A stretch of 64,000 bases of DNA from NCBI GenBank assembly GCA_039621445.1, contig CP154954.1, forward strand, positions 33,457,455-33,521,454, written 5' to 3'. Source of the DNA: Euglena gracilis. Lineage: Eukaryota. This document shows positions 30,701 to 64,000 of the stretch, one piece after another; within the stretch, counting starts at the first letter, position 1; each line of letters begins with the position of its first letter. Both the position numbers and the translations under genes were made by a program. The notes under the pieces were generated by a model that worked only from the letters and a program-made list of their open reading frames with translations, was not told the DNA's origin and did no database searches.

Positions 30701-33700
30701 GGGCCGGAGGGGGGACCTGCCAGGATGTCGCCGAAGAAGCGCAGCACGGGGACGTCCCGGGCCGGGATGAGCTGGGCGAGGTCCGCCCCGCTGAGGAGCT
30801 CCAGGTCCTGGTACACGTGCCGTGCTGCGGGGGGGGGGGGCAGGTGAGGGATGGCGCAGCCTGCCTGGCAGGTGGGAAGAAGTTTTCAGGCCAAAGCCAG
30901 CCCACCCGTTTTCTTTTTAAGTGATGCAGTTTCTCTTCCAATTTCTGGCTCATTTTGTAATTTATTGTTCGCATCCAGAGCATCCACCATAAATTGCTAG
31001 CTCTTCGGATACGCTCCAGCGCCCCAGAAATGTTCCACAACTTTCATCCATTGGACGAATTGGGTTGACTTTGCCCAAACCACAGGCAAAAAAAAAGAAC
31101 CCAACCATCCCCCGACGGTCCAGTGACCATGGTCGCTGGCGACGTCCATCACCAATTTCTCGCTCGGGGCTGTTAGCCGGGGTATGGGACAAGATCGAGG
31201 GGGGGAAGGTAAGTGTTTTTGCGTTTTTGACAAATTTTTGACCAAAAAAAAGTGTTCAATAATAGAATACCATGCCCCCCCCCCCGAGCTATTCCGGTCC
31301 CCAGAACCCTTTACGGCCAATAGGAACAGCGTGGGGGACAGCTCATGGGGGGGGGGACCTAGGTCCCCCAAGGCTATTCCCATATGCGAACCTCGGGCCC
31401 CCAAAGGGGGTCATTTTTGGGCAATTTTTGGATGTTCGACCACTTTTCACAGGCTTGATTTTTGGGGGCGTCCCCTCCCTCGGGGTACCGCGCCGGGCAG
31501 GGTGGGTGGGGGGAGAAGAGAGAGGGACCCCCCCGGGGGTCTTGCAAAGAGACTGGTTGCCAACCAGGCTTTCAAGCTGTATTCAGATCAGGCTTGTGCT
31601 TAGTTGGGTGGCTACCCCACGGGGGGTGGGGGCTGCTAGGGGCAGGCACCCCATAGCACCCGGTCCGACCCCCAGGGGGGGGGGTAGGTTTTTGGGGGGT
31701 GCCTGCCCATAGCAGGCACCGCACTCGAACTGCGGGCCGGCAGCAAACACACACCGACGAGGTACTCCTGGAGGGACTTGTGCCGGAAACCGGGGATCAT
31801 CGCCGGGGCCCCGCGCCGGAAGCTGACGCCGCTGGCGTACAGCTCCCAGGCCTGGCGCTGGGCCTGGCTCCACAGCTGGTCCAGCTTGAGCGCCGGCTGG
31901 CTGGCCACCTGCTGCTGGAAGTGCCGCGTGAGCCACGCCTCATACAGGTCCCGAGAGGCGTCGCAGCCTGTTGCGGTGTTTCAGAGCCGTGCGTTGCGTC
32001 ACACATTGACCTTCAGGTGGGGCAGAGTTCCGTTGCGAGGATGCTCCGTAGGAGGATGCTCTCGAGCGGCCTTGAACGTGTTCGAGGAACGTTCGAGGAT
32101 GCTCGAAAGCTCCTTGAGCGCGTTCGAGACACGTTCGAGGAGGCTCAAGAGCCTCCTTGAACCACCTCGAGCATATGTGCGACCATGGCAAAGAACTACA
32201 ATATCAATATATCAAAAACATTTCCACTAACTTCCTGTGTGTACAACTCCAATGTCCATTCCCAAGGTGGTAGGAGATAAGAGAGGGGATGAATTAAAAA
32301 CAAAGATGGTGCAGTCCCTGACCATTAATCAAAAAGCCAAAACCAAAAGCACATCGGAAAACGTCTTGGAAGCCACACACTGCATCGCTGCATTTTGGTG
32401 GTGTGTCCAGGACCTGGGGGGGGGGGCAGCGCCTGGCGGTGCGGCCCTTGAACTGGCGCCGGGGCTCCGCCAGCAGCACCGCCGCCGCCATCGTCAGCTT
32501 CCAGGGGGACGTGTACAGCGCCGGCCCGGGCTCGATGGGGATGGCCCCCACGATGCGCTGCCGCCGACCGGCCTGTGCGATGATGTGTAGATCATCCGAG
32601 ATCGTGAAGGGGGGAATTAAATTCTGCCTGAAAATGACTGAAACACCCCCATCCCCATTCTCGAAAGACTGCATAAAAATGCCAATTTCATGACGGTTGG
32701 TCTCAAAAACATCCTATGCAGCTTTTTCCACCAGGGGTGATCCAACCCATAGGTGGCGTCAGATACCAACAGGTTGGGCGGGTCCAGGAATAGAATACAT
32801 ATGGCAGGGAGGGGGAATGCTGGCTGGTGGCCAAAGGTCGCTCGCCCGAGTTAGGCTTTTGACCTCCTCCGAGGACCTGTGGCTTCCCTGACAGCCCTCT
32901 GCCCCAGGCTGACAAACAGGCACAGCCAGCAGGTGAAGGGTCACAACAGACCACAGACGGCAGCAGGCATGACAGGAAACTTCGTCCGAACGGTTTAGAC
33001 GAAATCAAGCACAATGAAAAGCCACAGGGGGCAGACTGGTAAACCAACAATTCACGTGGGGTTCCTCGGGGGGGGGGGGGGCTCTGCAGAACGTGGGTCT
33101 GGGAAAAGGGCTGACCCCCCGGCCGGGCTCTGGCGCTCCAGCTGCTTCAGGACGAACTCCTCCGCCTCGAAGGGGGAGAAGCCCTGCAGGAACAGCCAGG
33201 TCGGGGCAGGCCCGAAGCAGGGGCGGTACAGCGGGAGGTCCTCCTGCCGGCAGGTCACCACCAGCTTCAGGTTCCACGCCGAGAAGCCGTTCAGCGCCCA
33301 CCGCCCGGAGGTGGCCGCCGCGCTGGGGGCCGAAGTGCGTTGTGGGGTTCGGAAGGTTGGAATTCTGAAGAAGCGGATTCCAACGTTGGGGGATTTAAAG
33401 GTCAGGAATGGACGCCGGAACCGAAACCCGTTCCAACCTTCAGGACCAGGCAACAAGCTAGACAACCTCTCTTGGGAGGTTATACGTGGGGGATACTCAG
33501 CCATGAGAAAGGGAAAGAGTTGACACCAAGGGTTTTCTTGAGGACCCCGGGGGTCCCATGGGCCGGCTGGAAACAGGTGCTGGCTGGACCCCCCCTAGGG
33601 TGGGGGGTCCGGGGGGGGGGGGGGGCGCTGGGAGCTGGACCTGGTGGGTACCCAAAAAAGCCCCAAAAAGCCCAAATCCAGCTGGGTTGTCATTTTTTCA

Positions 33701-46100: not shown

Positions 46101-47534
46101 CCCTAACATCGACCCGAAATGCCATTTTAGGTACTTCTTGGGCAAAATTTTGTCAAAGTTGCCAGAATCTTCAGCACGAAGCGATGGAAGGGAAAAATTG
46201 AGCTTTTGGAGGGGTCCCGGGAGCCCTTCCTCGGTCTGGGGTCCCCCAGTCCAAGTCGGGTCCGGAGTTGGTCCGAACCCCCCTTAGCAGGTGGGAGGGG
46301 TTCCAAACCCCCCTTGTAGCTGCAGTGGGGGGGGACATCCCACATGAAACCCTTACACCTTCCTAATCTAACCCCCCCCCAGGGATGGATGGGAAGCCTT
46401 GAGGGGGGGGGGGTGGGTCGGACCCCCCCCTCCCGACACGGAGGGGGGGGGGGTGGGTCGGACCCCCCCCTCCTACCTCGAAACTGAGGGGGGGCCGAAA
46501 ATTTTTCGATTTCATGGACGGGCAAAGGGCTGGAAATCGGGTCAAAATCGGTCAAAAATCCCTGATTTTTCTTTGAAAATCGATCCAAAAATGCTCATTT
46601 TTTGAAATTTTTTGAACAATTTTTTGGGGGAAAACACCAACACATCAAAAAAAGGGCAATATGTCCAAAAGTCCGCAAAAAAGGGGTGTTTTTGCTCACT
46701 TTCTGGCGCGCAGCGCCGGAAGAAAATTTTCTGCTATTTTTGGCACCTGTCAAGGAGGGGGGGGTGGGGGGGTCCGGACCCCCCCTCCCAACATCTAGGG
46801 GGGGGGGGGGCGGCCCGGACCCCCCCCCTTCCCCCTTACCCCCCTAGGGGGGGGGGGGGGGTGGTCGGGACCCCCCCCTACCACCTACCTCAATACCGAA
46901 GGGCTTCCCATCCATCCCTGCCCCCCCCCTAACAAGTGCATGGGTGCGCACATTTTGAGGACGTAGTTTCGGACCCCGAAGGGATCCGCACTTATTAGGG
47001 CATGGCGCACGGATTAGGGCAAAGCACAAAAAACTTATTTTTTCACCACTCTTTTTCAGTCAAAGGAATGAGTCAATTGATCGTGTGTCAAATTTGGGCT
47101 CGGAATCTCCTGGTTGATTTTTTTTTTGGAGTCGTCCACTTCCGAGTTGTTTCGTTGCCCGAGACAGACATATTGATACACCAGAATGAGAAAGAGCGAA
47201 CAAAACAAAAACAGACAAGCAAAAAAATGGATTAAATGAACTACATCCAAAATCATGTACAGAAAGACTTTGTGATATATTTCGGGGCTGCCAATCAAAC
47301 TTTGTGTGATGCCTCGGTGGGTCCTTTTATTCAATTGAAGTGGATCACCATCACCAGACTGATTTCCCTCTGTCCACCTCTCAGTTTTTACCCACCGTGT
47401 GAATGAAACCAATCCACCTGCAAAAATCCAACTTACGTACAAGAACGTCACACTACACCTTCCAAAGCAAACTCGGGTTGGGGGCTTTACAATTGGGGTG
47501 GGGGCTGATATTTGAAGTGTCGAAGAATAAGGGG

Positions 47535-47839
47535 CAGGGCGGTCCTTAAGCAAATAAAAAAAAAAACTCCGCCGTCCCAGCACACTCAGTGAAAAATATA
47601 CAGGAAAATGGGCAATTTTTTTGGCATTTTTCAGTGAGAACAGGTCGACATCGGGGAAAAAAATTGATTCCTGGCACCCCTGGACCATCGTCTATCCACC
47701 CAAATCATCAAAAAATGTGTTTTTTGGACTTTTTAATTTTGGACCCCGTTCAAGTCCCAGCCGGTCCTTTGGCCGAAAGGGGGACGGTTCTTAAGGAAAT
47801 AAAAAAAACAAACTTTTCTGTCCCTTAAGGACCGCCCTG
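47535..47839. mobile_element. hAT-like MITE, 16-bp perfect TIR, perfect 8-bp TSD
   Basis: ataagggg|CAGGGCGGTCCTTAAG...CTTAAGGACCGCCCTG|ataagggg; 305 bp. Confidence 0.92.
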
Positions 47840-51532: not shown

Positions 51533-51663
<131 letters not shown>

Positions 51664-51684: not shown

Positions 51685-51757
51685 CAAGTTGCTTGCTTTT
51701 GACTTCAAGCTGCTGCTGAGTCTCCGCATTGAGCAGCTTCACTCGGACGGTGAGGTC
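51685..51757 (-). CDS. Isolated putative exon of an unresolved gene (roughly 42-54 kb)
   Basis: CAG acceptor and GT donor flank DLTVRVKLLNAETQQQLEVKSKQL. Other GC-rich patches at 50760-51200 and 53590-53760 may belong to the same gene but I could not assemble them. Confidence 0.35.
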
Positions 51758-52077
51758 CTGTGTGCAGGCATATGGATCAGATTTGCGCTTGAACACAATG
51801 CATTTGCATCATTGTTTGTTTGTTGGGCTTGAAAAAAACAACAGACAAGAGGCGAAACAGCAAGTTCTACAAGTTCCTGGGTTCATTTTCATGGAAATAT
51901 TGTGGGTGCCGCAATGCCTCAGCAGTTCGGACACACCGTTGGTGCCAGGGCGTCGCTTGGCGACCCCTTGGGGGAGGGGTCCAGCTCGGGGAATTCAGGC
52001 TTGCTGGAAAAAGGCTGCCGGCTGACCACCCCTCTGGGTCCACTGGCTGGGCCTTGGCCTTGACTGGGGGTTGAGAA

Positions 52078-52387
52078 CATGCTTGTGCTTACCAAATGGG
52101 GGGGGGAGGGGGGGGTGGGTGCTATAGGGTGCCTGCCCCTAGCAGGCACACCCCCCCCCCCCGGGGGGGATAGGGGTCCAGGCCGGACTGAGAAAATTTT
52201 CATTGAAAATGGCCGTTTCCGGGCCCCCGGCGCCTTTGGCGCCGGGGTCGGAGGGGGGTGCCTGCTAGGGGCAGGCACCCCCCAAAACCCTATCCCCCCG
52301 GGGGGGGGGTCGGATCGGGTGCTATGGGGTGCCTGCCCCTAGCACCCCCCCCCCTGTGGGGTAGGCACCCGACTAAGCACAAGCCTG
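52078..52387. mobile_element. hAT-like MITE, perfect 8-bp TSD
   Basis: gttgagaa|CATGCTTGTGCTTA...TAAGCACAAGCCTG|gttgagaa. A truncated inverted copy lies at 31589-~31720. Confidence 0.88.
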
Positions 52388-54193
52388 GTTGAGAACCTGG
52401 TGTACACCCCCCTAAATAACCTGGCGGGGTGCCAGCTTATTGGAACCAACTTTTGGTCCTGCCCCCCCCTGCCAGGTTATTTGGGCCCTTTTTTTCAGCG
52501 TTGTAAAAGAATTTTGCCCAAAAAGGGAGTGCCAAATTACTGAAACCATCTTTTTTGCCCCTTCCCCCGCCAAATTACTCGGCCACTGCCAGGAGCAAGG
52601 GCCCCGCCAGGTTATTTGGGGGGGCGGGTTTTAAAAAAAAAATCGAAAAATGTAAAAATGCCAAAAAAAGACTGCCAATGATGTAAAAACGTTCCTTAAA
52701 ACATAATTTGACACAGACGGAGAGTCCATTTCCCACCCATTTTTGCCCTTTTGCCAAATTTCTGCACCGGAAGCAAAAAAAATACTGTTACCGTTGCTCT
52801 TCAGCTGGACACAAATCAAAACTTGTCGATGGGGAGGGGATCCGAGGGTGGAAAAAATAAAACAGATGATATTTCAATTCTCTCTTTTTTGGCGTGTTGT
52901 TAAACAACAGACATGTGGAGGTGCAAGCCATTGTTGGGTCGCCAACTGAAGGGTTGTGGTGGATTCAAGATGCATGGAGCACAACCGTGAATACCTGGAT
53001 TTGGCACTTTCATCACACTTTATTGGGTTCTTAGGTGAAATTGGGGTCAGGTTTTAATCAACTGTTTTGAGAACTGAAAGAAATGCTAAATTTAGGCTAA
53101 AATTAGTAGAAAACACCTCGCAAACCCGATTCCAAACATAACCCCACCTCTCTTGAACCCTGCTCCAAATCCGACCAGAACCCTCACTCCCATCCTGAAC
53201 ATCAAACAAACTGCGGAACATCACCCAAAGTCAGAACTATCCTAATCGGACCCATATAGAGCAGAGAGCCCACTACCTCCCTCGCCATATGAGTGATCCC
53301 CTAGAAAGAACAGGCGCATGAGCCTCCCCCAGAAACCCACCTTGGTTTTTCATTTCGGTAGGTTGGTCAGCGGAAGGGATGTGAAAAGTCAGGGATTGCT
53401 CATCAGACCAGGGAGCAATCTGATGAGCAACATATGCATGATCGTACGAAATTGTGTGAAAAACTGATCCTTTCATTTTCCCATTGCTTTTCACTTTTAA
53501 AAACCATCAACAACTCCTTGGGTGCTGCTATTATTTATTGCAATTTGTTGTGGGTCAGGTTCCAACAACGGTACCATAAGGTGTTGTATCGCGTCGCGGA
53601 GCGCACCTCGTGTGATATCCCGCTTGCTCGCTCAGCCACACAACGTCAAGCCGACAACGTCCGCAGCATAATGTGGCAGAAGGCGAACTGCTGGGAAGCG
53701 GTCCAAGTTGCAAAATACAGAGCGGCTTCAACTCCTTCAAACGTCCATCATCCTCACATGACCCTTTTGTGCATTGCATTTCTCAAAGCAGCAACCTGGT
53801 CCCAATGTACGTTAGGGCTGAAAAATCTATCAAACTGTCCTTTCCAAGAAAATGGTACAATCCATCAATCCGAAAATCTCTTTGTCCTCCTCTGCCAGGC
53901 AGAAATCGACCCACCTGGGAGAGGTTGATGAGGCAGCCTTTAACTACTACTCCTTCGGTGATTTCCGTTATTTTTAGGGGCAGGGTCAGGGTTGCGGTTC
54001 GTTCAGAAGGGGATTAGGGTTGGGTTAGGCCAGAGTTCGGCAGTTGGGCCGAAATCGGGCCTAAATTCTGGCCTGAATTTGGTCTAATTTTAGCCTAAAT
54101 CTGGGTTAAACGACCTAAACCCAACCCTAACCCCATTCCCAAACCCTAACCCTAACCCTATCAATTCAATTAACCCAAACCTTCACCTTGGAC

Positions 54194-55210
54194 AGTGCCA
54201 AACGGTAGACTGGGGGGGGGGGGTAGTGGGTAGTCGGCCGACTACCCAATTGGTCGGCCAACAAGTCGGCCGACCAATTGGTCGGTAGCTAGTCGGTACA
54301 TTAGCTTACTCTAATGTACTAACGGGTCAAAACCGCCGACTTTTAAGCCCCCCCCCCCCGGGAAAAAAACTTTTGTCTAAATCACCTCAACACCAGTCAA
54401 AACCCACCCAAATGGCTCCAGAACCCCCCAATTGGGGGGGGGGGAATATGCAAAAAAATTGGGGGGATGTCCATTTTGGGCCACTTTTGACAAAAGAACA
54501 CCTCTCCCCATTGGATTTTCAATATAAGTCAAAATTTGCACAAAAAGGACTTATCCCTCCAAATCTATTGCCAACATAGAAGGGATTTTGTTATTTGATG
54601 GGGGGGGTGCGGGGGGGGGGGGCGGAGCCCCCCCCCCCCCGCCTATGCCAAAGTGAGCCACAAAAACGACTATGTCGCCAACACAGAAGGGATTTTGTTA
54701 TTTGAGGCTCTGATGGGGGTGTATGGGGGGGGTTTCTGCCTCTCGTGATGCAGAATGCTTGCATTTCTAAAGGATTTTCATGTAATCCTTGTTTTATCAT
54801 TGGTTTTTCACCCTTCGAGACACCCATCAAGGGCCCACCGACCCCCACCGACCAAAGATTTCCATCTGGGGGTGTTTATTTAGGTGTAAGGCACTTATTT
54901 GGACCCATCCGGACCATTTCCGGGTGATTTGGGCCCGCCACAGACCATTTTTATGACCACCGACTAGCCACCGACTAGTTTGCATTGGATTTTCTTCATG
55001 GGGGGGGCTTAAAAGTCGGTGGTTTGGACCCGTTAGTACATTAGAGTGGGTAGTCGGCCGACTAGTCCGCCGACTACCCACTCTAATGTACCGACTAGCT
55101 ACCGACCATTTGGTCGGCCGACTAGTCGGCCGACCAATTGGGTAGTCGGCCGACTAGTCGGTCGACTACCCACTACCCACTACCCCCCCCCCCAGTCTAC
55201 CGCCATGCGC
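54194..55210. mobile_element. Long-TIR element (possibly Mutator-like)
   Basis: About 150-200 bp imperfect TIRs (CGGTAGACTGGGG..GTAGTGGGTAGTCGGCCGACT) rich in GTCGGCCGAC palindromes. Flanked by direct repeat CACCTTGGAC at 54184 and 55211. Confidence 0.6.
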
Positions 55211-55801
55211 CACCTTGGACCAAGAGTAGGCCTGCTGCACCAGACATTTCTCATGGGCACCTCCAGTGGGGAGCGCGAAAACCCAGGGAAATGAAGAGAC
55301 CAAGTCATCTTCTCAAACGCATGGGGCGCATGGGGGGGGACCGAATCCCCCCGTTTGGTCCTCTCCGGGGGGGGGGGCAGCCGTCAAAACCTCCATCAGA
55401 CATCCATCCTTCTCCAATCTAGCAATTCAAGTCATTAAATATGTTCCCATGTCCTAATTAATATTGCAATCTCTCAGAGGGCGGTACCCAAAAATGTGGC
55501 AGCACGACAGAGACAAAAACTAAACCTGGGCGTGGCTCAAAATGGCGATATTCCTCCCCATTTGACGCTTGCAGCCCTGTCACCCACACATGTGTGCACG
55601 TGCACAGGAGCACGACAGGGGTTGGAGAGATGGAAGAGGCGTGGTGCATAAACTACGCCAGGATGATATCCCAACGCTCTGGTGTTAGGGTGTTAGAGTC
55701 AGGGTGGGAGGGACTGTGCGGGAGGGAATGTGGGAGGTTGAGGTGGGTTAGCTGCCCCAGGAGGTAGTGGAGTGGGCGTTCAGTCCGCCGCACCTTCTTC
55801 C

Positions 55802-57507
55802 TCAGGCAGAGGTTTCTGGTTTGTGCTTCTTCTGCTTGCGCTCTTTCTCCTTCTCCTTCTGTTGGACAGCTTCGGCAGCAACCTGATCTGTGTCCACCAT
55901 AAGCGGGGCTGGGCCTTCCCACCCCCAACAAAATACAAAAAGCGATGTTCACAAATAACCTCAGCAGTGGTTTTTTGGAACCTTGGGGGCCGGCCCGGAT
56001 GCCGATTTTCCCGCTCTGCCGGTGACAGTTGCGGTCTGCCAGTGACGCAGTTGGTGGCTGGTGGGTGGATGTTTCAACGGTTGGATGCAACTTGGGCGGG
56101 AAACAAAGGACATGCATGGTTGTGAGTATGAGTCGATCAGCTCTGGAACGTCCCGGAGGTTTTGTGCATGTTGCCACACCACCCCCACCGCATCAGAGGC
56201 CCCAGCTCAGCCCCGCCCATCTCCCGGGGCCGCTTCGCCTTGGCCTTGGTCCGGGGCGGGGCCGGCTCCCCCACGTCGGCGGCGTAGCCGTCCTCCGCCT
56301 CCGCGGGCCCCTCCTCCCCCTCCGCCGCCTCCGCCGCCAGGCGGGCGCGTTTCGCGGCCTTCTCCGCCTTGAGCTGGTCCAGCTTGGCCTGCAGCTCATC
56401 CCACGTCGCGGGGTCGGGGGTCAGGGGCCGGGGGGAGGGCACGACACATGCAAACCTCAAACGTCGCTTCTGACGACTTGTTTCAGGGGTTGCAAATGGG
56501 CAGACCGCTACTGAAATACTTGAAACAGAGATCCTTTGTCGGTGCAGTTCAACCGACAGGAGCGGGGTCCCATTTGGGGCAACTTAATGCTCTATCCATC
56601 TTGAACCACCTTGGTGGGGGGAATTTTCAGGACGTTTGTGTAAATCTCAAGGGTGGGTCTTGGTGGGTATTGGGGGGGGGGGAGGGGCGGGAGGCGGCCC
56701 GCCACACCAACGCCCCCTGGCTGATGCCGGAGGCCTTCTTGTACTTCTTGCTGCCGACCTTCCACTTGTAGTCCACCTGACCCAGCCGCTTCAGCCGCTG
56801 TTCCACGATGCGCCGGTCCCCGTCAGGCTTCTTTATTTGCCAACCCAGGGCGGGAGGGGGGGCTGTACGGGAATCCCCTTTACCCATGGGTGGGGTGGGT
56901 GGGGGTCGACCCCTGTCTGCCCCCTGCCTGCCCACAGCATCCCCGGGGGGTTCAACCTTTTCATTAGAAAGAAGCCTGGACCCGATCCCGTTCCGCCTTT
57001 GTGCGGTGTGCTGCGAGGTACCGCATCGGGGCGATGGAGTCCAGCGTGGCATCCGGCAGCACCGCGTTGGGGACCCGGCCGGACCTCCCCACCGGCCGGG
57101 TGGGAAATCCACTCCTTGTGCGGATGTGTATGTGTGTGCATCTATGGGGGGGGGGGTTGTTTGGGAGATACACTGTTCAGTCAACACATTTGGCTAAAAT
57201 TAGGTTGAAATTTGGTCAAAAATGACAAAGAGAGCCTAACTTTCAGCCTAAATACAAACCACCTTATCCTAATCCCATCTTGAACACAATAAATGGCAGA
57301 AGGCGCACAATCACGGTCAGCAAGAAAATTGCCCGAACCCACCCGCACGTTGCACCACCGGGGCCTCTGGGGGGGGGGATATGTGAGGATGGATGGATGG
57401 ATGGATGGGTGGGATTGGATGGCTGGCTGGCTGGCTGGCTGGAACAACACATGGACTGACGGGCGGACGGACGGAGAGATGGATTGATGGATCTGTGGAC
57501 ATACGGA

Positions 57508-57596
<89 letters not shown>

Positions 57597-60412
57597 GTCA
57601 GTGGTGTCCAGCCCCTCGAAGCGGATGGGGTCGATGTTGAGAGCATGCGCCGCCCTCGCCGTGTGTGTGGCCCCAGGTGTGGGGAGGTTGAGCAGCGGCT
57701 GACTGGGAGACCGTCACTCCGACTAAAACAACCGAGTGAGTTGACGACCCAGTGGTTCAAATACAGCCGCACCAGTCCCAGGGCGAGGCATGGCCGCGGT
57801 ACTTGAAGCGGCACTTCACGGTGCCGCCCGCAATGACATCCTCGTACCCCAGCTCGTCTATCTCCTTCTGGGTGTACTGTACCTCTGGCAGGACTGGGGG
57901 GGTTTGGCGCAAATTGTATCCATCCTCAAAGAGGAAGACCGTGTGTGAGGGCCGCTGAGAGCTTTTTTTTTTTAAGTTCCCCTCTCGGCCATGAATGCTG
58001 GTGTGGGAGAAAATATCCAGTTCAACTTCTACAAAGAAGAAAGGAAGGGAAAATTCCAAGGAAACCGCCCAATATAAAACCCCCAAACCATGTGCGGGGA
58101 CGTTTGATTTTTGCATGCGGGTCTTGAAATCCTGCTCAAAGCTGGGGGTCTTCACATGGGAGGGGTCAGAAACCAGAATAAACCCACATTTTGCGTTACC
58201 CAAGGCGAGCTGACGTCGACAGGCATCCACCATTTGCTAAAATCGTCAAAAGAGACCTTCAAACAGGTCCAGTGGGGCCCCGGCGACTGCAATCCGGCCA
58301 GCCCCTCCCCCCCCCCCCCCGCCCTGGCCTCCTCCTCCAGCTGCCGCTGCAGCGTCTCCTTGCTCACCGTGCGCCGCCGCCGCCGCCCCGCATCGTCCCC
58401 GTCGCTGTCGCTGTCGGAGTCCTGCGGCCCGGCCGGCGCCTTTCCGCCCCCGCCGCCGCTGCTGGGGCCAGGGTGGCGGCCCGGAGGGGCCACAGTGGGC
58501 AGAGGCGGGACCATCACCGCCGGACATCCAGTCCCGATGGGAACTCACGGGAGGTTGGTTTATGGGAGGCAGGTGCCGCGGCCGGCCGCGACCCAACCAA
58601 CAACCACTCCACCTCCCGTGATCTACCACCCTTGTGCCGCGAAATGCCCTTTCCTCGTGCGTTCCTGTGCTCAGTTGGGGGGTCCAAACCTTCTGGTCTA
58701 AGGCAGGGCGGTCCCAGACTTGGCGAATTTGGTTTGGTAAACACGCATTGGAGAAAATTCTGCGCTTTGGTAGGGGACGGTTGGCACAACATGGTAACAC
58801 TTTTGAAAATGGACGTGATTTGGCAGCCGTTCCCACGCACATCCTTCCTTCAGCATCCAACAAACCTTTGCTCTGGCCAACGCTGGCCCATCAGCCTGCG
58901 TGCTTGCGGCCTCCATGGCCGTCGGGGTCTCGCTGAACACAGATGCCACGAGCTGGCGCTTCTCCCACGACGCATCCGTGCCGAGCAGTTTGCGGAGCTC
59001 CGGCTGCTCTGCCCAGTCCTCGGCCTCCGGGTGGAAATTCCTGCCAGGGTGCCGCCAGGACAGGAGTCAGCATGCGTCTGAAGTGTTCAGCACGCAGCAG
59101 ACAACCTTGTCTGTCCTCTGATTGGGGGGGTGATCGCTGCAGAGGGATACTCGGCTTCCCTGAAACACGAAAAACCCTCCTGAAAGGGGTTCTCTGGTCA
59201 GGGAGGGGATGATCGCTTGACAGGGTGGTCGTTTGATATGAGGGTGACATGTCTGTGCGCAATTTTGTGTGTAAACCCCCCAAATAGTATTGCACCCGCA
59301 GTTCTATTGGACGGCCGCCTCCCGCGGTGGGGGGTGCAGCACTATTTGGACCCGCAGCACTATTGGACTGGGTGCCTCTTAGTCCCGACCTATCACCACA
59401 GGCACCCTATTTGTCTGCTCAATGTCCTTGTCTGAGGCTGGTGAGGTTGTGTGGTTCATCTTCGGACCTCTTCTGTGAGTTGTTCGGGTGGGAATTTGCC
59501 CCCTTTCCCCTCTCTGCGGATTAAAAAAGGTGCTGCAGTGGGCTGCACCAGCTTCTACGCATTTCACATTGCTGTGATTTGGGGGGGTGCAGCACTATTG
59601 GACGCTCGCTTCATCCGGCGGGGGGTGCAGCACTATTTGGACCTGCAGCTCTATTGGCCCCGCAGCACTATTACCCGCCCCCCCCCCTTGTCATATAACA
59701 GGGTTCCTGCAACCTGTGACCGGGGGGGGGGGGGTCGTAACACCTCCATAACCTGCAACCTGTGACCGGGGGGTGGTCCTAAATGAGGGGTGGTCATACG
59801 ACTGGGGGGGGGGTAGGGGGGTTATGACTTCGGGGTGTCTATGTTCCCCCGAAAAAGGAAATGACCTGGACGGGTGCCAAATGACTGGAACCATCGTTTT
59901 CGCCCATGCAGCCTCTGGGCCCCTGCTCGGCCCTCAGCGGGGCCCTGCACGGTGTCCGCCTCCTCGTAATAGTCGTCGTTGAACACCTGTGACATGAGCT
60001 GGTCGTACTCCTCCAGGGAGGCGTGGCGGATCTTGTGCAGGAGGTCCGCCGAGAAGCGGTCCTTGCGGGCGAGACCCACTCTGTGCCGGGGCGACCCATC
60101 GCTTGGCTCGGGGTCCGGCTCCTCCGCCAGTGCACCGCAGCCAGGCTTAAGGGATTGCAGTACCCCCCCCGGGGGGGCTGGACTGCAGCTAGTCCAAATT
60201 TGGCTAGTGGGTTTTCTAGCAGACCCCCCCCCCGGGGGGGTCTGCTAGCAGGGCTAGCTAGTGGAATTTTTTTTTCCAGTGACCGGCGCGAAGCACCGAA
60301 AATTTTTTTTGGGACCCCAAAAATGGCCAAAAATGCCCGTTTTTGGCCATTTTGAGAATTTTTGGAACAAAATCAGCCAAAAACCTGATTTTTGGAACAA
60401 AAGCGCAACATT

Positions 60413-60462
<50 letters not shown>

Positions 60463-63400
60463 CCCCCCCCCCTCGCCTCCGCGCGCCCCGCCCCTCCCCC
60501 CCCCCCCCCCCGGCCCCCCCCACCCCCCCCCCCCCCCCCCCACCCCCCCCCCCCCCCCCCCCCTTCTCCGCTTACCCTACAGCCAAAAAAACCTGATTTT
60601 TGGAACAAAATCAGCCAAAAACCTGTTAAAAACCTTATTTTTCCTCCGGCGCTGTGCGCCGGAGGAAATTTTTTTTCCAGTCCGGGGGACCACCGGACCC
60701 CCCCCCCCGGGAGGGAGGGGGGGTCTAGCTAGTCCACTTTTTCCAGTGTCTAGCCGATTGGCTAGCCAATACCCCCCCCCCCCGGGTCCTCAAGCAAAAG
60801 CCTGACCGCAGCCCTTCACACAATTTCATATTCCTCTCCTTTGCCCCCGTAAATTCTGCAGCGTTGGACATTCCACAACATGTTGAAATGCAGAAAAATT
60901 TGCGGAGGCCACTGTTATTGACAAAACAAAAAGGCGCTGAAATAAATTGCCCATGACACTTTTTCCCATTTCAGGTAACCCAGTGCGCCAATTATGAACC
61001 TTTATTATTTATTTTGCGGTCCAGCAATATGCGCATTAATACATACAGACGGACACTGTATGAGTGGCTTTCGGCTTTTGGCGCCCGCAATCTCCTTCAG
61101 CAGGGCTGACTTCTCTTGCAATGCTTTCTTCTTCTGCATCTTCACGCGGCAGCGCCATGAGACCCTTGCAATACACAAACTGTTCAATTTCACACGCAAC
61201 ATAATAGACATACAGCACAACACACAACACGCAATGTGCACAACCCACAAATACCCGCTCGACAGACACATATGTAACCCCCCTCATGCACACACTCGTC
61301 AGCGCAGTCCACCATCAATCACGTTCCAGGGGTCGCCTGAGCTCAGTTCCTCCTGGAACGTGCGCTCCCGCTCTGCCTCCTTCTCTGCCTGCAGCTCCCG
61401 CCGCTTCTTGCGGGCCGACTCCTTGCGCCGCAGGCTGGGCCCCATCTGCGGCGCCGCGATCTGCTCCGTGAAGCCCTGCGGACCCCAGCGGGAAGGCAGC
61501 CCAGCAGGCTATGAAGCCTGTGCAGGGGTGCGCACAGGCTTCTTTTGACAAGCCCGCCTTGGCATGGGGTTCCTGCCCATACCCCGGGGAGGGTCGGTTT
61601 TGGGCCCTTTCAAAAAAAAATGCATCTTTCTCATAGTTTGCACCCTTTTGCACATCTTTGCATACCTTGAGCTGCCTTGTTGCACCCCCCCCCCCCGATT
61701 TGCACCCCCCATCAACTGTCACCTGGGCAGTTTTTTGCCCCAAAACCCCCACCCAGGCCGGCCCCAGGGGTTGGGCCCAGGCTTCTTTTTAAGACCCCTG
61801 GTGGGGACCACCCCATCGGGCCGTCTAAGGGCATTTTCCAAAAAAAATTGGAAGTTCGCACGGAAACCCACACCTGGGCCTCTGGCCCAGGAGCCCCTGG
61901 GGGGTCTGGCCCCGGCCCCGGGGTCTTCCAAGTTAAAAAGAAGCCTGGTCGGGCCAGGCCCAACTGCCCACACTGGGTCCCTGGGTCGTTTAAAAAAAAT
62001 TAAACTTTAAACGTTCAAGTTTAAACTTTAGACTGTCAAGTTAAATTTGGAAATGAGGAAACTCAAAAGTGGAGAAAAGTTTGCTGGCATCCCCAACAAC
62101 GGTTCAGAGGGGAAATTAACTAAGGCTTTGCATTGGTGTTCCAGTTGGCTGTCCCCTCTAAGATTTGCCAGCCATCTCACCAACCTTTTTTGAAAAAGGT
62201 CAGACTGTACACTACTTCCTGTGATGGCAGTGATGGCCAATGTTTCAATAAAATGGCGGATTCCACCTGTCCAGCGAGCAAATTGAGAATATGGGGGGGG
62301 GGGGCATTTCAATCTCAAAAACGTGAGGCCCAATCCTAGCTGGAAGGCATTCAGGCCACCCATGTTGCTTACCTTACCTTAGGAATTTTTTTCTGACGAG
62401 TCATCAAATACGAGCGAAAATGGCAACTTCCCAACATGCAAAATCAGCAGGAGTAGACTGGTGGAGAAAATCTTTCATCTGCGCCAGGGGCTATTTTCAT
62501 TATGCAACATTTTTGATCCTCTAGATCCTGCAACACAGTGCACATTCTGAACAATCATTCGAACTTTTATCCACAAAAAGCACGGAAGCATGAACAAAAG
62601 AGTTTCCACATTTATTTAAAAAATTCGAAAAAGAAGGAACCATAGAAAAAATTGTCCACCAAAAGCAAGTGTGGTGCAAACTTGCAAATACCACGGTTGC
62701 CTGCCCAATTGCATTCACCCATTTTCATGATGCAACAACTGAAAATACAAAAACAAAAATTGGTGTATGTGACTTCAAGATGCCTGTGATTTGCTTTGGT
62801 GTATGCAACTTCATGATGCCTGTGATTTGATTTGCTGGATGTGACTCTGATGAGGTAGAAGATTTCCCTGTGAAATAACATTGAAAATTTTGGAGAATGG
62901 GGGGTCAAAACACAAAAAAAAATGTCCTAAAAATGCACACGCTCCAACATTTTCATTGTGCAAAAAAAATAAAAAACTGTGCAAAAAGAAAAGAAAATTA
63001 TCCAGAATTTGTATTATGAAAAACAGATGCAACTTATGCAACTTGCATACTCTCTCCCCTGTGCAAACCCACTGTGAACAAAAGGCCACATATACCTCTT
63101 CTTGGTGGTGGTACTTGAACTCTTCATATGCATGTTCAAAAACCTCTTGGTTGTTGGTGAACTCCTCGTCCTCCCAAGCACACGTGAGGTGGTGAACAAA
63201 GAGGGTTTTTAGCCAGAAAAGAAATGAGCACCATATTTAAAACAAACAAGAAACAGAACAAAATATTGCATATATCCTTCCTCACATAAATTTGCTTAGC
63301 TGGCAGTGCTTCCCTCTCCCTTCTAACAAATTTTTTCAGCTTTTGGTGCTTTGCCAAGGGTGATGAACTATGAGTCTTAAAATAGTTGTATGAATCTCCA

Positions 63401-63777
63401 CACAACCCCTGCTCAACCCATAAAGGGGTGGGTGGTGTCATGTCAATAACAAGAAGAATAATCGGATGACAGAACAAATCACAATTTAATTCTGAATTCT
63501 CCAATTTCCATGCTATATTATACTGGAGCAGAACACAAAAATGAAGGATTACATTTGCAACAACAAAAAAAATTCCTCACCAGCAAGAACATCCGAAGTC
63601 ACCTCGGGTGTGGCCAGTGGATGAAGGGGCCTCCGGAGGTTCTTCTGGGGCCCCTTCCTCTTCCTCCTCCTCGCTGGCCGCCTCCCCTCGGGATTTGGCC
63701 GACCTCCGCTTCGGTTTCGCCTCCTCCGCCTCCTCCGTTGCCTTTGTCCACGACCATCCGTCATTTATGAAGTAGTC
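55802..63777 (-). CDS. KRI1: KRI1-family 40S ribosome biogenesis protein (3' part; 5' end lies beyond the window)
   Basis: Exons ~63777-63616 (DYFINDGW..), 63173-63096 (EDEEFTNNQEVFEHAYEEFKYHHQEE), 61475-61343 (..SLRRKESARKKRRE..), 61150-61070 (..EKSALLKEIAG..), 60815-60808, 60136-59951 (..YDQLMSQVFNDDYYEE..), 59039-58902, 58463-58329, 57882-57796 (GYEDVIAGGTVKCRFKYR), 57638-~57591 (NIDPIRFEGLDTTDLL), ~57063-56982 (LPDATLDSIAPMRYLAAHR..), 56818-56723, 56415-~56224, ~55894-55802. The motif order matches KRI1 as I recall it (YEDII.DLPCRFKYR..FGLSTEEIL..DDKELN). Frame of the last exon is uncertain (stop at 55802 or 55780). Confidence 0.88.
56819..56981 (-). other. Nonconventional/intermediate intron with MITE termini (KRI1)
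   Basis: CGG|GTC CAGGCTTCTTT...AAAGAAGCCTG ACGGG|GAC. 11-bp perfect stem identical to the TIR of the 61778 MITE. Confidence 0.82.
57511..57590. repeat. (GA)40 microsatellite abutting a KRI1 exon
   Basis: Directly visible. Confidence 0.95.
57639..57795 (-). other. Nonconventional intron (KRI1)
   Basis: TAC CGC|GGC CATGC CTCGCC...GGCGAG..GCATG CTCTC|AAC. Pyrimidine|purine at both junctions; restores RFKYR-NIDP. Confidence 0.85.
60137..60807 (-). other. Nonconventional intron formed by a MITE insertion in KRI1
   Basis: Minus strand: ..GGCTGC|GGT CAGGCTT...AAGCCTG GCTGC|GGT GCA. Perfect 8-bp direct repeat GCTGCGGT (plus strand ACCGCAGC at 60134-60141 and 60805-60812). In-frame join K-G-C|G-A-L. 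Confidence 0.85.
60142..60804. mobile_element. hAT-like MITE, TIR CAGGCTT, perfect 8-bp TSD
   Basis: accgcagc|CAGGCTT...AAGCCTG|accgcagc. No ORF. Internal duplicated segment (ttttggaacaaaatcagccaaaaacctg) and a poly-C tract. Confidence 0.85.
61778..61947. mobile_element. hAT-like MITE inside a GT-AG intron of KRI1
   Basis: gttgggcc|CAGGCTTCTTTTTAA...TTAAAAAGAAGCCTG|gtcgggcc (TSD 7/8); 170 bp. Confidence 0.85.
63174..63615 (-). other. Nonconventional intron (KRI1)
   Basis: ACT|GGC CACACCCGAGGTG...CACCTCACGTGTG CTTGG|GAG; 11 of 13 bp pair; in frame. Confidence 0.8.
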
Positions 63778-64000
63778 GGCGCAGGGCCCCCCATGTCACA
63801 ACCATCTTTCCGCCGGGCGGATGGAACCTTGTCTCCCCGAAGTGGTCCCAGGTTTCCAGTCCAGGGGGGGCACTGGTTTTTCAGGAATGCCTCCTTGGGA
63901 TCCTTGGAACTGAGGCCAGGGCAAGTGGGACCGCTGGTCCCAGGCACAACCTGGGTTGGGAAATGCCAAGCAGCCAGCAATGAGGGTAGGCTGGTGCAAC

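Follow-up and report, generated by a model that had tools for sequence, protein, structure and literature searches.

A 663-bp MITE-like element flanked by an 8-bp duplication lies inside a nonconventional KRI1 intron of Euglena gracilis

The KRI1 homologue in the 64-kb stretch of Euglena gracilis DNA analyzed here (hereafter, the window) contains a nonconventional intron of 1012 nt that encloses a 663-bp MITE-like element with terminal inverted repeats and an 8-bp target-site duplication. We consider it probable (roughly 85%) that this MITE inserted at ACCGCAGC inside a pre-existing intron of KRI1 and that it is removed passively together with this host intron. A nonautonomous DNA transposon with 7-bp CAGGCTT ends would have entered ACCGCAGC and thereby generated the 8-bp duplication, with its insertion point inside an intron that the KRI1 homologue already had in a euglenid of the Euglena gracilis type. 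The host intron, probably older than the insertion, would have grown from about 341 nt to the 1012 nt seen now (60064-61075, minus strand), and the element would leave the transcript as a passive part of it.

The initial annotation had described the element by its CAGGCTT/AAGCCTG termini and perfect 8-bp duplication, and both can be read straight from the sequence (Table 1). As is characteristic of MITEs, the element ends in terminal inverted repeats and has a duplication of fixed length directly outside of them; comparison of the flanks permits an exact duplication at a length of 8 only, while the perfect inverted repeat of just 7 bp is short for a MITE. Its interior includes, besides a poly-C tract, perfect 30-bp direct repeats at 60358-60387 and 60596-60625 that belong to the same repeat family (D5). 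No second full copy was found by blastn in the 64-kb window, where only self matches and short palindromic modules were recovered, and the contigs of DNA run X1 did not yield a copy with both termini. These contigs pile up on the element and reveal internal-deletion variants and joints inside it, and the summed depth of the run is 1e5 to 1e6 over 59098-61152 compared to about 150 on unique bins, though depth of this kind should not be read as a copy number. Because of this depth and the internal-deletion joints, the modules of the element appear to be highly repeated in the genome, and its assignment to a repeat family is based on the same two observations. When metagenomes were scanned with the 19 nt of the left terminus, a single match to an AT-rich bacterial contig was obtained, which we attribute to chance.

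Table 1. Positions of the element, its host intron, and related features in the window.
Feature	Position	Strand	Evidence or remark
MITE-like element, 663 bp	60142..60804	.	Noncoding; made of short palindromic modules
Left terminal inverted repeat CAGGCTT	60142..60148	+	Sequence
Right terminal inverted repeat AAGCCTG	60798..60804	+	Sequence
Target-site duplication, left copy ACCGCAGC	60134..60141	.	Repeat family D15
Target-site duplication, right copy ACCGCAGC	60805..60812	.	Repeat family D15
Interrupted poly-C tract, ~150 nt, within the element	60413..60563	+	Sequence; repeat family D5
KRI1 nonconventional intron, 1012 nt, enclosing the element	60064..61075	-	RNA joint and P0001; junction slides by 1 nt
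KRI1 upstream exon (P0001 residues 402-425)	61076..61148	-	tblastn, 96% identity; joints 61148>61341 and 60063>61076
KRI1 downstream exon	59951..60063	-	PF05178 (Kri1), E 4.7e-4, below curated cutoff; tblastn; mapped record 10 spans 59951-60063
5' exon segment, 8 bp perfectly complementary to 60063-60070	61083..61090	-	Sequence; paired in centroid fold
3' junction segment of host intron, pairing with 61083-61090	60063..60070	-	Sequence; centroid fold
KRI1 nonconventional intron, 163 nt (155-bp element 56824-56978 plus 8 nt)	56819..56981	-	P0001 crosses junction, 14/14 residues
170-bp MITE, 15-bp perfect inverted repeat CAGGCTTCTTTTTAA, 7/8 duplication GTTGGGCC/GTCGGGCC	61778..61947	.	Inside GT-AG intron 61475-63094 (joint 61474>63095)
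305-bp MITE, 16-bp perfect inverted repeat CAGGGCGGTCCTTAAG, perfect 8-bp duplication ATAAGGGG	47535..47839	.	Inverted-repeat and flank analysis
541-bp MITE, 19-bp perfect inverted repeat CAGGGATGGATGGGAAGCC, flanks C8/C8	46380..46920	.	Inverted-repeat and flank analysis

Transcript evidence locates the relevant splice junction of KRI1, in which 12 of the 13 mapped introns are nonconventional, at 61076/60063. The joint 60063>61076, which skips 1012 nt, is carried by 14 RNA reads from two runs (X21: 3+4 reads, 7 starts; X22: 1+6 reads, 7 starts) and by one RNA contig of 1721 nt from run X15, with 0 occurrences in DNA run X1. The same junction is crossed by P0001, a transcript-derived Euglena KRI1 protein of 755 aa from EukProt that reads ...EIAGAKKDRFSADLL... 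at this site and matches the exons in the window at 82% to 100% identity. RNA reads were mapped over 51700-64000, a part of the window that excludes the (CA)n repeat at 51548-51662, and 60406-60573 was left out of read mapping as a repeat. The RNA runs carry the same species label as the window, from which they and P0001 differ at the SNP level, and both may represent another strain. Since RNA joints and P0001 agree on the junction, 60064-60136 and 60808-61075 on the two sides of the element are intron.

This bears directly on the proposal of the initial annotation that the element plus one copy of the duplication (60137-60807) is exactly a nonconventional intron that interrupts KRI1 coding sequence and is cut from the mRNA such that the exon is restored and the frame kept (GC|GALAEE). 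On paper, this proposal is attractive: the unit matches the published code 5'-N3-CDG...CH'G-N5-6 | purine, as given in passages of PMC12501133, by reading GGT-CAG...CTG-GCTGC followed by G on the minus strand with a 7-bp stem, and its excision leaves an open frame that runs into the downstream exon. However, the transcripts use other sites (14 reads, 1 contig, and P0001), an outcome that the initial annotation had itself named as refuting, both flanks of the element are intron rather than coding sequence, and the supposed upstream exon contains an in-frame TGA at 60826-60828, six codons before the proposed junction. The GALAEE... segment is also absent from P0001; chance open frames are common in the window, which has 240 stop-free frames of at least 110 aa, and this frame is probably such a chance product of GC-rich intron DNA. 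Removal of 60137-60807 as an intron from KRI1 exon sequence therefore seems scarcely tenable, and what stands of the annotation is a MITE with an 8-bp duplication that is one of several such CAGG...CCTG elements in the window and fits the published splicing code, but not its being the KRI1 intron itself. The same fit, which extends to every element of the published code (PMC12501133) and includes the 7-bp terminal stem, could also speak for nested splicing, in which 60137-60807 would be cut first as an intron within an intron and the remaining 341-nt intron be removed later. Such a sequence of events appears unlikely, as the step is unnecessary for the observed mRNA and a 60136/60808 joint, corresponding to the annotated junction GGCTGC|GGTGCA, is not among the 15 joints listed out of 422. 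Passive removal with the host intron is also consistent with the pairing of the host's own ends, which would be held together by two helices instead of the inverted repeat of the element. One helix of 8 bp connects the 5' exon to the 3' junction (Table 1), and a second one of 6 bp pairs 61062-61067 with 60076-60081 by sequence and in the centroid fold; centroid pairing of the intron ends alone was used, and the MFE fold of the whole intron is dominated by G/C runs. The host intron does not have the CAG/CTG signature.

The origin of the 663-bp element as a transposon is best judged together with its relatives in the window, where four or five elements with CAGG...CCTG ends are flanked by 8-bp duplications, all of them in intronic or noncoding DNA. 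Three CAGG-ended elements besides the one in KRI1 have perfect inverted repeats of 15 to 19 bp and duplications of 8/8, 8/8, and 7/8; the C8/C8 flanks of the element at 46380-46920 make it little informative on duplication length. Across the whole window, we scored 1372 pairs of CAG...CTG with a perfect inverted repeat of at least 6 bp and a spacing of 30 to 3000 nt, and identical flanking 8-mers (8/8) were found for 4 of them, including 2 with homopolymer flanks. Shifted-register controls (n = 120) gave a mean of 0.158 such pairs, and none of 20 block shuffles produced one. Inverted-repeat pairs with an 8-bp duplication are far more common in the window than in these controls. A chance coincidence of inverted repeat and duplication in repeat-rich intron DNA could draw on the shortness of the 7-bp repeat and on the lack of CAGGCTT enrichment in the window (18 sites versus 11.95 expected; 8 of 100 shuffles reach 18), but it is very improbable in view of the excess of 8/8 flanks and of the high-copy repeat that forms the interior of the element. 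Only slightly more credible is that the insert is filler DNA from double-strand-break repair, which may also leave short direct repeats, instead of a transposon. The inverted repeat of only 7 bp and an interior pieced together from genome-wide repeat modules would fit such an origin, and a passage of the 2016 study (PMC4770533) proposed this mechanism for a young gapC intron of E. agilis with an 8-nt repeat. Yet the combination of CAGG...CCTG ends and exactly 8 bp of flanking repeat is found again on elements whose perfect inverted repeats span 15 to 19 bp, and this recurrence is the signature of a transposase rather than of random filler.

The insertion of the element was thus probably mediated by a transposase, which may have been of the hAT type to judge by the length of the duplication alone. 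MITEs of the hAT superfamily have 8-bp duplications and short inverted repeats starting with CAG or TAG, such as the ends of maize Ac/Ds, their end consensus is YARNG, and their autonomous partners encode a transposase with a BED finger, a DDE core, and a hAT dimerisation domain; however, 8-bp duplications are not unique to hAT and also occur with P, Merlin, and some others. The elements in the window resemble hAT MITEs in their ends, which begin with CAGG, and in the 8-bp duplication of two unambiguous elements (60142-60804 and 47535-47839), with 7/8 at 61778-61947. Five termini of the CAGGCTTCTTT type are clustered within 5.2 kb, which recalls the local hopping of hAT elements. On the other hand, CAGGC in the window departs from YARNG at the fifth base, and Pfam searches of the ten longest of the 240 open frames found neither a transposase nor a hAT dimerisation domain, with weak WD40 and pentapeptide matches only.

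A neighboring KRI1 intron resembles these elements in its build. Intron 56819-56981 consists of a 155-bp element with an 11-bp perfect inverted repeat CAGGCTTCTTT plus 8 nt, and its cut sites lie 3 nt ahead of CAG and 5 nt past CTG, in exact fit to the published code. The flanking 8-mers are identical at 5/8 positions, and the junction slides by 3 nt. This intron shares its CAGGCTTCTTT ends with the duplication-flanked 170-bp MITE 5 kb away, though the likeness is limited to these ends (11 to 15 nt) and the interiors do not align. Among the introns scored in the window, flank identity amounted to 22/56 versus 14.4 expected (P about 0.02), a weak excess; the RNA-supported register was used for intron 59040-59950. 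The introns of a large WD40 gene were left out of this analysis because protein searches for a same-species transcript recovered only P0004, which is too divergent for nucleotide-exact junctions (exon matches of 75% to 95% identity, kept at 75% or more).

We tentatively suggest, at somewhat less than even odds, that CAGG...CCTG elements with 8-bp, hAT-like duplications are the source from which nonconventional introns of euglenids still arise and that the 3+5 spacers are the duplication itself. The experimentally established spacers of the splicing code, 3 nt ahead of CAG and 5 nt behind CTG, would exist because their sum equals the 8-bp duplication, so that any such insertion into an exon could be removed scarlessly. 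KRI1 intron 56819-56981 would be one worked example of such an element plus 8 nt, and the 663-bp element may be a copy that is splice-competent by sequence and happened to land in an intron. The view of the 3+5 offset as a fossil of the 8-bp duplication has some support, being favored by intron 56819-56981 and the weak excess of flank identity, but is neither demonstrated nor refuted by them.

The derivation of euglenid nonconventional introns from MITEs has been proposed before, as passages of several publications attest (Milanowski et al. 2014, PMC3935182; PMC4770533; Mobile DNA 2024 review, PMC11282704; Nomura et al. PNAS 2025, PMC12501133), and the literature already contains both a transposon origin and, for a single young intron, a repeat of 8 nt. 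The passages of this literature speak of “TSD-like” repeats and of that one 8-nt repeat without equating the 3+5 spacers with an 8-bp duplication, and they report neither a hAT-like source nor free-standing MITEs that share the intron ends. The introns described there have CAG/CTG located 3 nt and 5 nt inside of the cuts, paired ends, and direct repeats at the junctions. Unit 60137-60807 fits this description on paper with its 7-bp stem, but the 663-bp element differs in not serving as an intron of the mature mRNA, and its borders are used neither by the RNA joints listed nor by P0001. Similar to what is described in passages of the 2024 review (PMC11282704) for introners of Micromonas, Aureococcus, and dinoflagellates and for MITE-derived noncanonical introns of Fritillaria borealis, the case considered here would involve DNA transposons which carry inverted repeats, make target duplications, and turn into introns; in those systems, part of the geometry needed for splicing comes from the duplication and removal is consequently scarless. 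Their introns are removed by a (modified) spliceosome and have duplications of 3 to 5 nt, whereas the euglenid route is structure-based and probably nonspliceosomal, and the 663-bp element is a mere passenger in an intron.

At 60142-60804 itself, the result is an ordinary one, a small transposon that rides in an intron and leaves the mRNA unaffected. For the question of how nonconventional introns of euglenids arose and why their cuts fall 3 and 5 nt outside of the CAG/CTG stem, the window offers free-standing MITEs that have these ends and exact duplications of 8 bp, together with one intron corresponding to such an element with 8 nt added. An origin from these MITEs would predict that young nonconventional introns throughout the genome have 8-bp duplications divided 5+3 between the two sides of every junction, and also that there is a transposase making 8-bp staggered cuts.

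KRI1 lies on the minus strand, and the initial annotation had read the 663-bp element as interrupting its coding sequence and, together with one duplication copy (60137-60807), as being itself a nonconventional intron. We mapped two public RNA-seq runs (X21 and X22, raw reads), a set of probable RNA contigs (X15) and a DNA run (X1), all public and with the same species label as the window, on 51700-64000. The joints listed for KRI1 are 59039>59951, 60063>61076, 61148>61341, 61474>63095 and 63172>63615; joint 60136>60808 is not among the 15 of 422 joints listed for this region. Joint 60063>61076 skips 1012 nt, is supported by 7 reads each from X21 and X22 and by one 1721-nt X15 contig, and is absent from X1, so the spliced intron is 60064-61075 with the element wholly inside. 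The translation of 59951-60136, used as query, has one protein match, the transcript-derived KRI1 protein EG_transcript_3819 (EukProt; here P0001; 755 aa, Pfam domains Kri1 and Kri1_C), whose exon matches in the window are 82-100% identical. It reads ...LKEIAGAKKDRFSADLLHK..., which is the RNA junction 60063/61076, and lacks the 25 residues GALAEE...VGLAR of the coding stretch proposed initially. That frame contains a stop (TGA, 60826-60828) six codons upstream of the junction it implies, so there is no upstream exon that the element could interrupt; open frames arise easily in this DNA (240 stop-free frames of at least 110 aa in the window). By the RNA joint, the P0001 sequence and the TGA, the element is not itself the KRI1 intron, nor does it interrupt coding sequence; reads, contig and protein use 60063/61076 instead of a junction across 60137-60807. 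What lies nested in this nonconventional KRI1 intron is a genuine MITE-like insertion flanked by an 8-bp duplication. This host intron lacks CAG/CTG at the canonical positions; a perfect complement of the exon segment 61090-61083 lies across the 3' junction at 60070-60063, with a second complementarity between 61067-61062 and 60081-60076, and the first helix is predicted in the centroid fold. Such end pairing agrees with the classical description of nonconventional introns in the available portions of PMC3935182 and PMC6221363.

The insertion proposed initially, with inverted ends and a perfect 8-bp duplication, is read directly in the sequence and stands above controls. Its plus-strand order is ...gtgc ACCGCAGC CAGGCTTAAGG ... 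CAAAAGCCTG ACCGCAGC ccttc..., and no exact duplication length other than 8 is possible. Inside, short palindromes follow one another, with an interrupted poly-C tract of ~150 nt (60413-60563) that could reflect either genuine expansion or an assembly artefact. Internal joints of X1 DNA contigs include 60386>60666, in forms that skip 60387-60665, and 60266>60315. Summed X1 contig depth, which is not copy number, is 1.8e5 to 8.8e5 in bins covering 59098-61152 versus ~100-270 on unique bins, and shows that element modules are highly repeated; blastn of the element against the 64-kb window found no second full copy. Its right terminus is similar to CAGGCTTGTGCTTAGT, found at 31589 (+) and 52387 (-). 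Very high-copy repeats also lie at 52111-52932, 54166-55398 and 59098-59919 (summed DNA-contig depth up to 1.3e6), where RNA reads have loose ends running into poly-G/poly-C.

Features of the window, with termini and flanks
Feature	Position	Strand	Length and repeats	Flanks or context
MITE-like element	60142-60804		663 bp; perfect inverted repeat 7 bp	
Its duplication copies	60134-41 and 60805-12		identical 8-mers	ACCGCAGC
Direct repeats in the element	60358-60387 and 60596-60625		30 bp, perfect	
MITE	47535-47839		16-bp perfect inverted repeat	duplication ATAAGGGG, 8/8
MITE	46380-46920		19-bp inverted repeat beginning CAGGGATG	C8 flanks
MITE	61778-61947		170 bp; 15-bp perfect inverted repeat	7/8 duplication; inside GT-AG intron 61475-63094
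KRI1 nonconventional intron	56819-56981	minus	163 nt = 155-bp element + 8 nt	
KRI1 nonconventional intron	57063-57590	minus	starts directly with (TC)n microsatellite, ~70 nt	without CAG/CTG signature
Unit CAGGCTTG...CAAGCCTG	51996-52387		392 bp	no duplication (flanks 3/8)
Mini-palindrome	61505-61520		16 nt	CAGGCT-ATGA-AGCCTG
(CA)n microsatellite	51548-51662		~115 nt	preceded by (GC)n

The window holds 1372 CAG...CTG pairs that lie 30-3000 nt apart and have a perfect inverted repeat of at least 6. Flanking 8-mers are identical at 8/8 in 4 of them and at 7/8 in 1, while 120 shifted-register controls gave means of 0.158 and 1.48 pairs, respectively, and none of 20 block shuffles held any 8/8 pair. 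Two of the four 8/8 pairs, with homopolymer flanks (A8, C8), count for little; the remaining pairs are the 663-bp element and MITE 47535-47839. Inverted repeats of at least 11 occur in 8 pairs versus at most 1 per shuffle. Since controls and shuffles fall below the observed 8/8 count, the structural observation is real, and CAGG...CCTG elements flanked by 8-bp duplications form a class in the window. The start of the 46380-46920 inverted repeat is similar to the maize Ac end. All four elements that combine a 7-8/8 duplication with a non-trivial inverted repeat lie in intronic or non-coding DNA. MITEs 46380-46920 and 47535-47839 both sit between exons of a large minus-strand gene, bracketed by exon matches 48043-47996 and 44301-44233 of the EukProt protein GGOE01006517.1.p1 (P0004). 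This ~39-kb gene (about 12785-51732) encodes a ~1600-aa protein with WD40 and pentapeptide repeats and has many introns; its exons are 75-95% identical to P0004 (matches kept at ≥75%), and protein searches found no same-species transcript.

Aligning P0001 to the window in all registers, with 59040-59950 placed in its RNA-supported register, maps 13 KRI1 introns: 61475-63094, which is purely GT-AG, and twelve that have no GT/GC-AG-only reading. The published code for nonconventional introns, N3-CDG...CH'G-N5-6 then purine (PMC12501133), fits six of these twelve, among them 57884-58329, for which a GC-AG register exists as well; in a seventh the 3' spacer is 4 nt. Spacers are 3+5 in five of the seven, 3+4 in one and 3+6 in one. 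Of the 8 positions in their flanking 8-mers, 2, 2, 2, 4, 5, 3 and 4 are identical, in sum 22/56 against a control-based expectation of 14.4 (P about 0.022), a weak excess in a small sample.

Intron 56819-56981 is a worked example, at another place, of what had been proposed for the 663-bp element. Its 155-bp element has an 11-bp perfect inverted repeat CAGGCTTCTTT, with cuts 3 nt before CAG and 5 nt after CTG; the flanking 8-mers are identical at 5/8, the junction is slidable by 3 nt, and P0001 reads across it as ...KAERDRDRRIVE... (14/14 residues). The ends of MITE 61778-61947 are identical to those of this element at 14/16 and 13/16 nt, and the interiors do not align. An orphan CAGGCTTCTTT terminus at 61535 (61535-61549) is the fifth such terminus; all five fall in a 5.2-kb stretch of one gene, and we calculate an expectation of ~0.03 occurrences for an exact 11-mer over 128 kb, both strands counted.

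The hAT label of the 663-bp element is putative, its sole basis being duplication length, and Pfam detected no transposase among the ten longest open frames of the window. As far as the available portions of these sources go, a MITE origin of euglenid nonconventional introns was proposed in 2013 (PMC3935182), and a 2024 review terms CAG/CTG inverted repeats and mentions TSD-like repeats (PMC11282704). Nomura et al. 2025 defined the code by knock-in, with a fixed 3-nt spacer and one of 5-6 nt, and classed 69.1% of nonconventional introns as "slidable"; TSD does not occur in a word search of the main text (PMC12501133). In one E. agilis strain, a gapC intron of recent gain carries "eight nucleotide direct repeats" at the junctions, which the authors read, in the accessible text, as double-strand-break repair (PMC4770533, 2016). 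In the open literature, taken as main texts of freely available journals, we found no publication that equates 3+5 with an 8-bp target duplication, makes an assignment to hAT or describes free MITE copies bearing these ends. The general model, in which the 3+5 offset would be a fossil of the 8-bp duplication and introns may be born from transposons, survives with a concrete example nearby, and the scale at which to test it is the whole genome and transcriptome.
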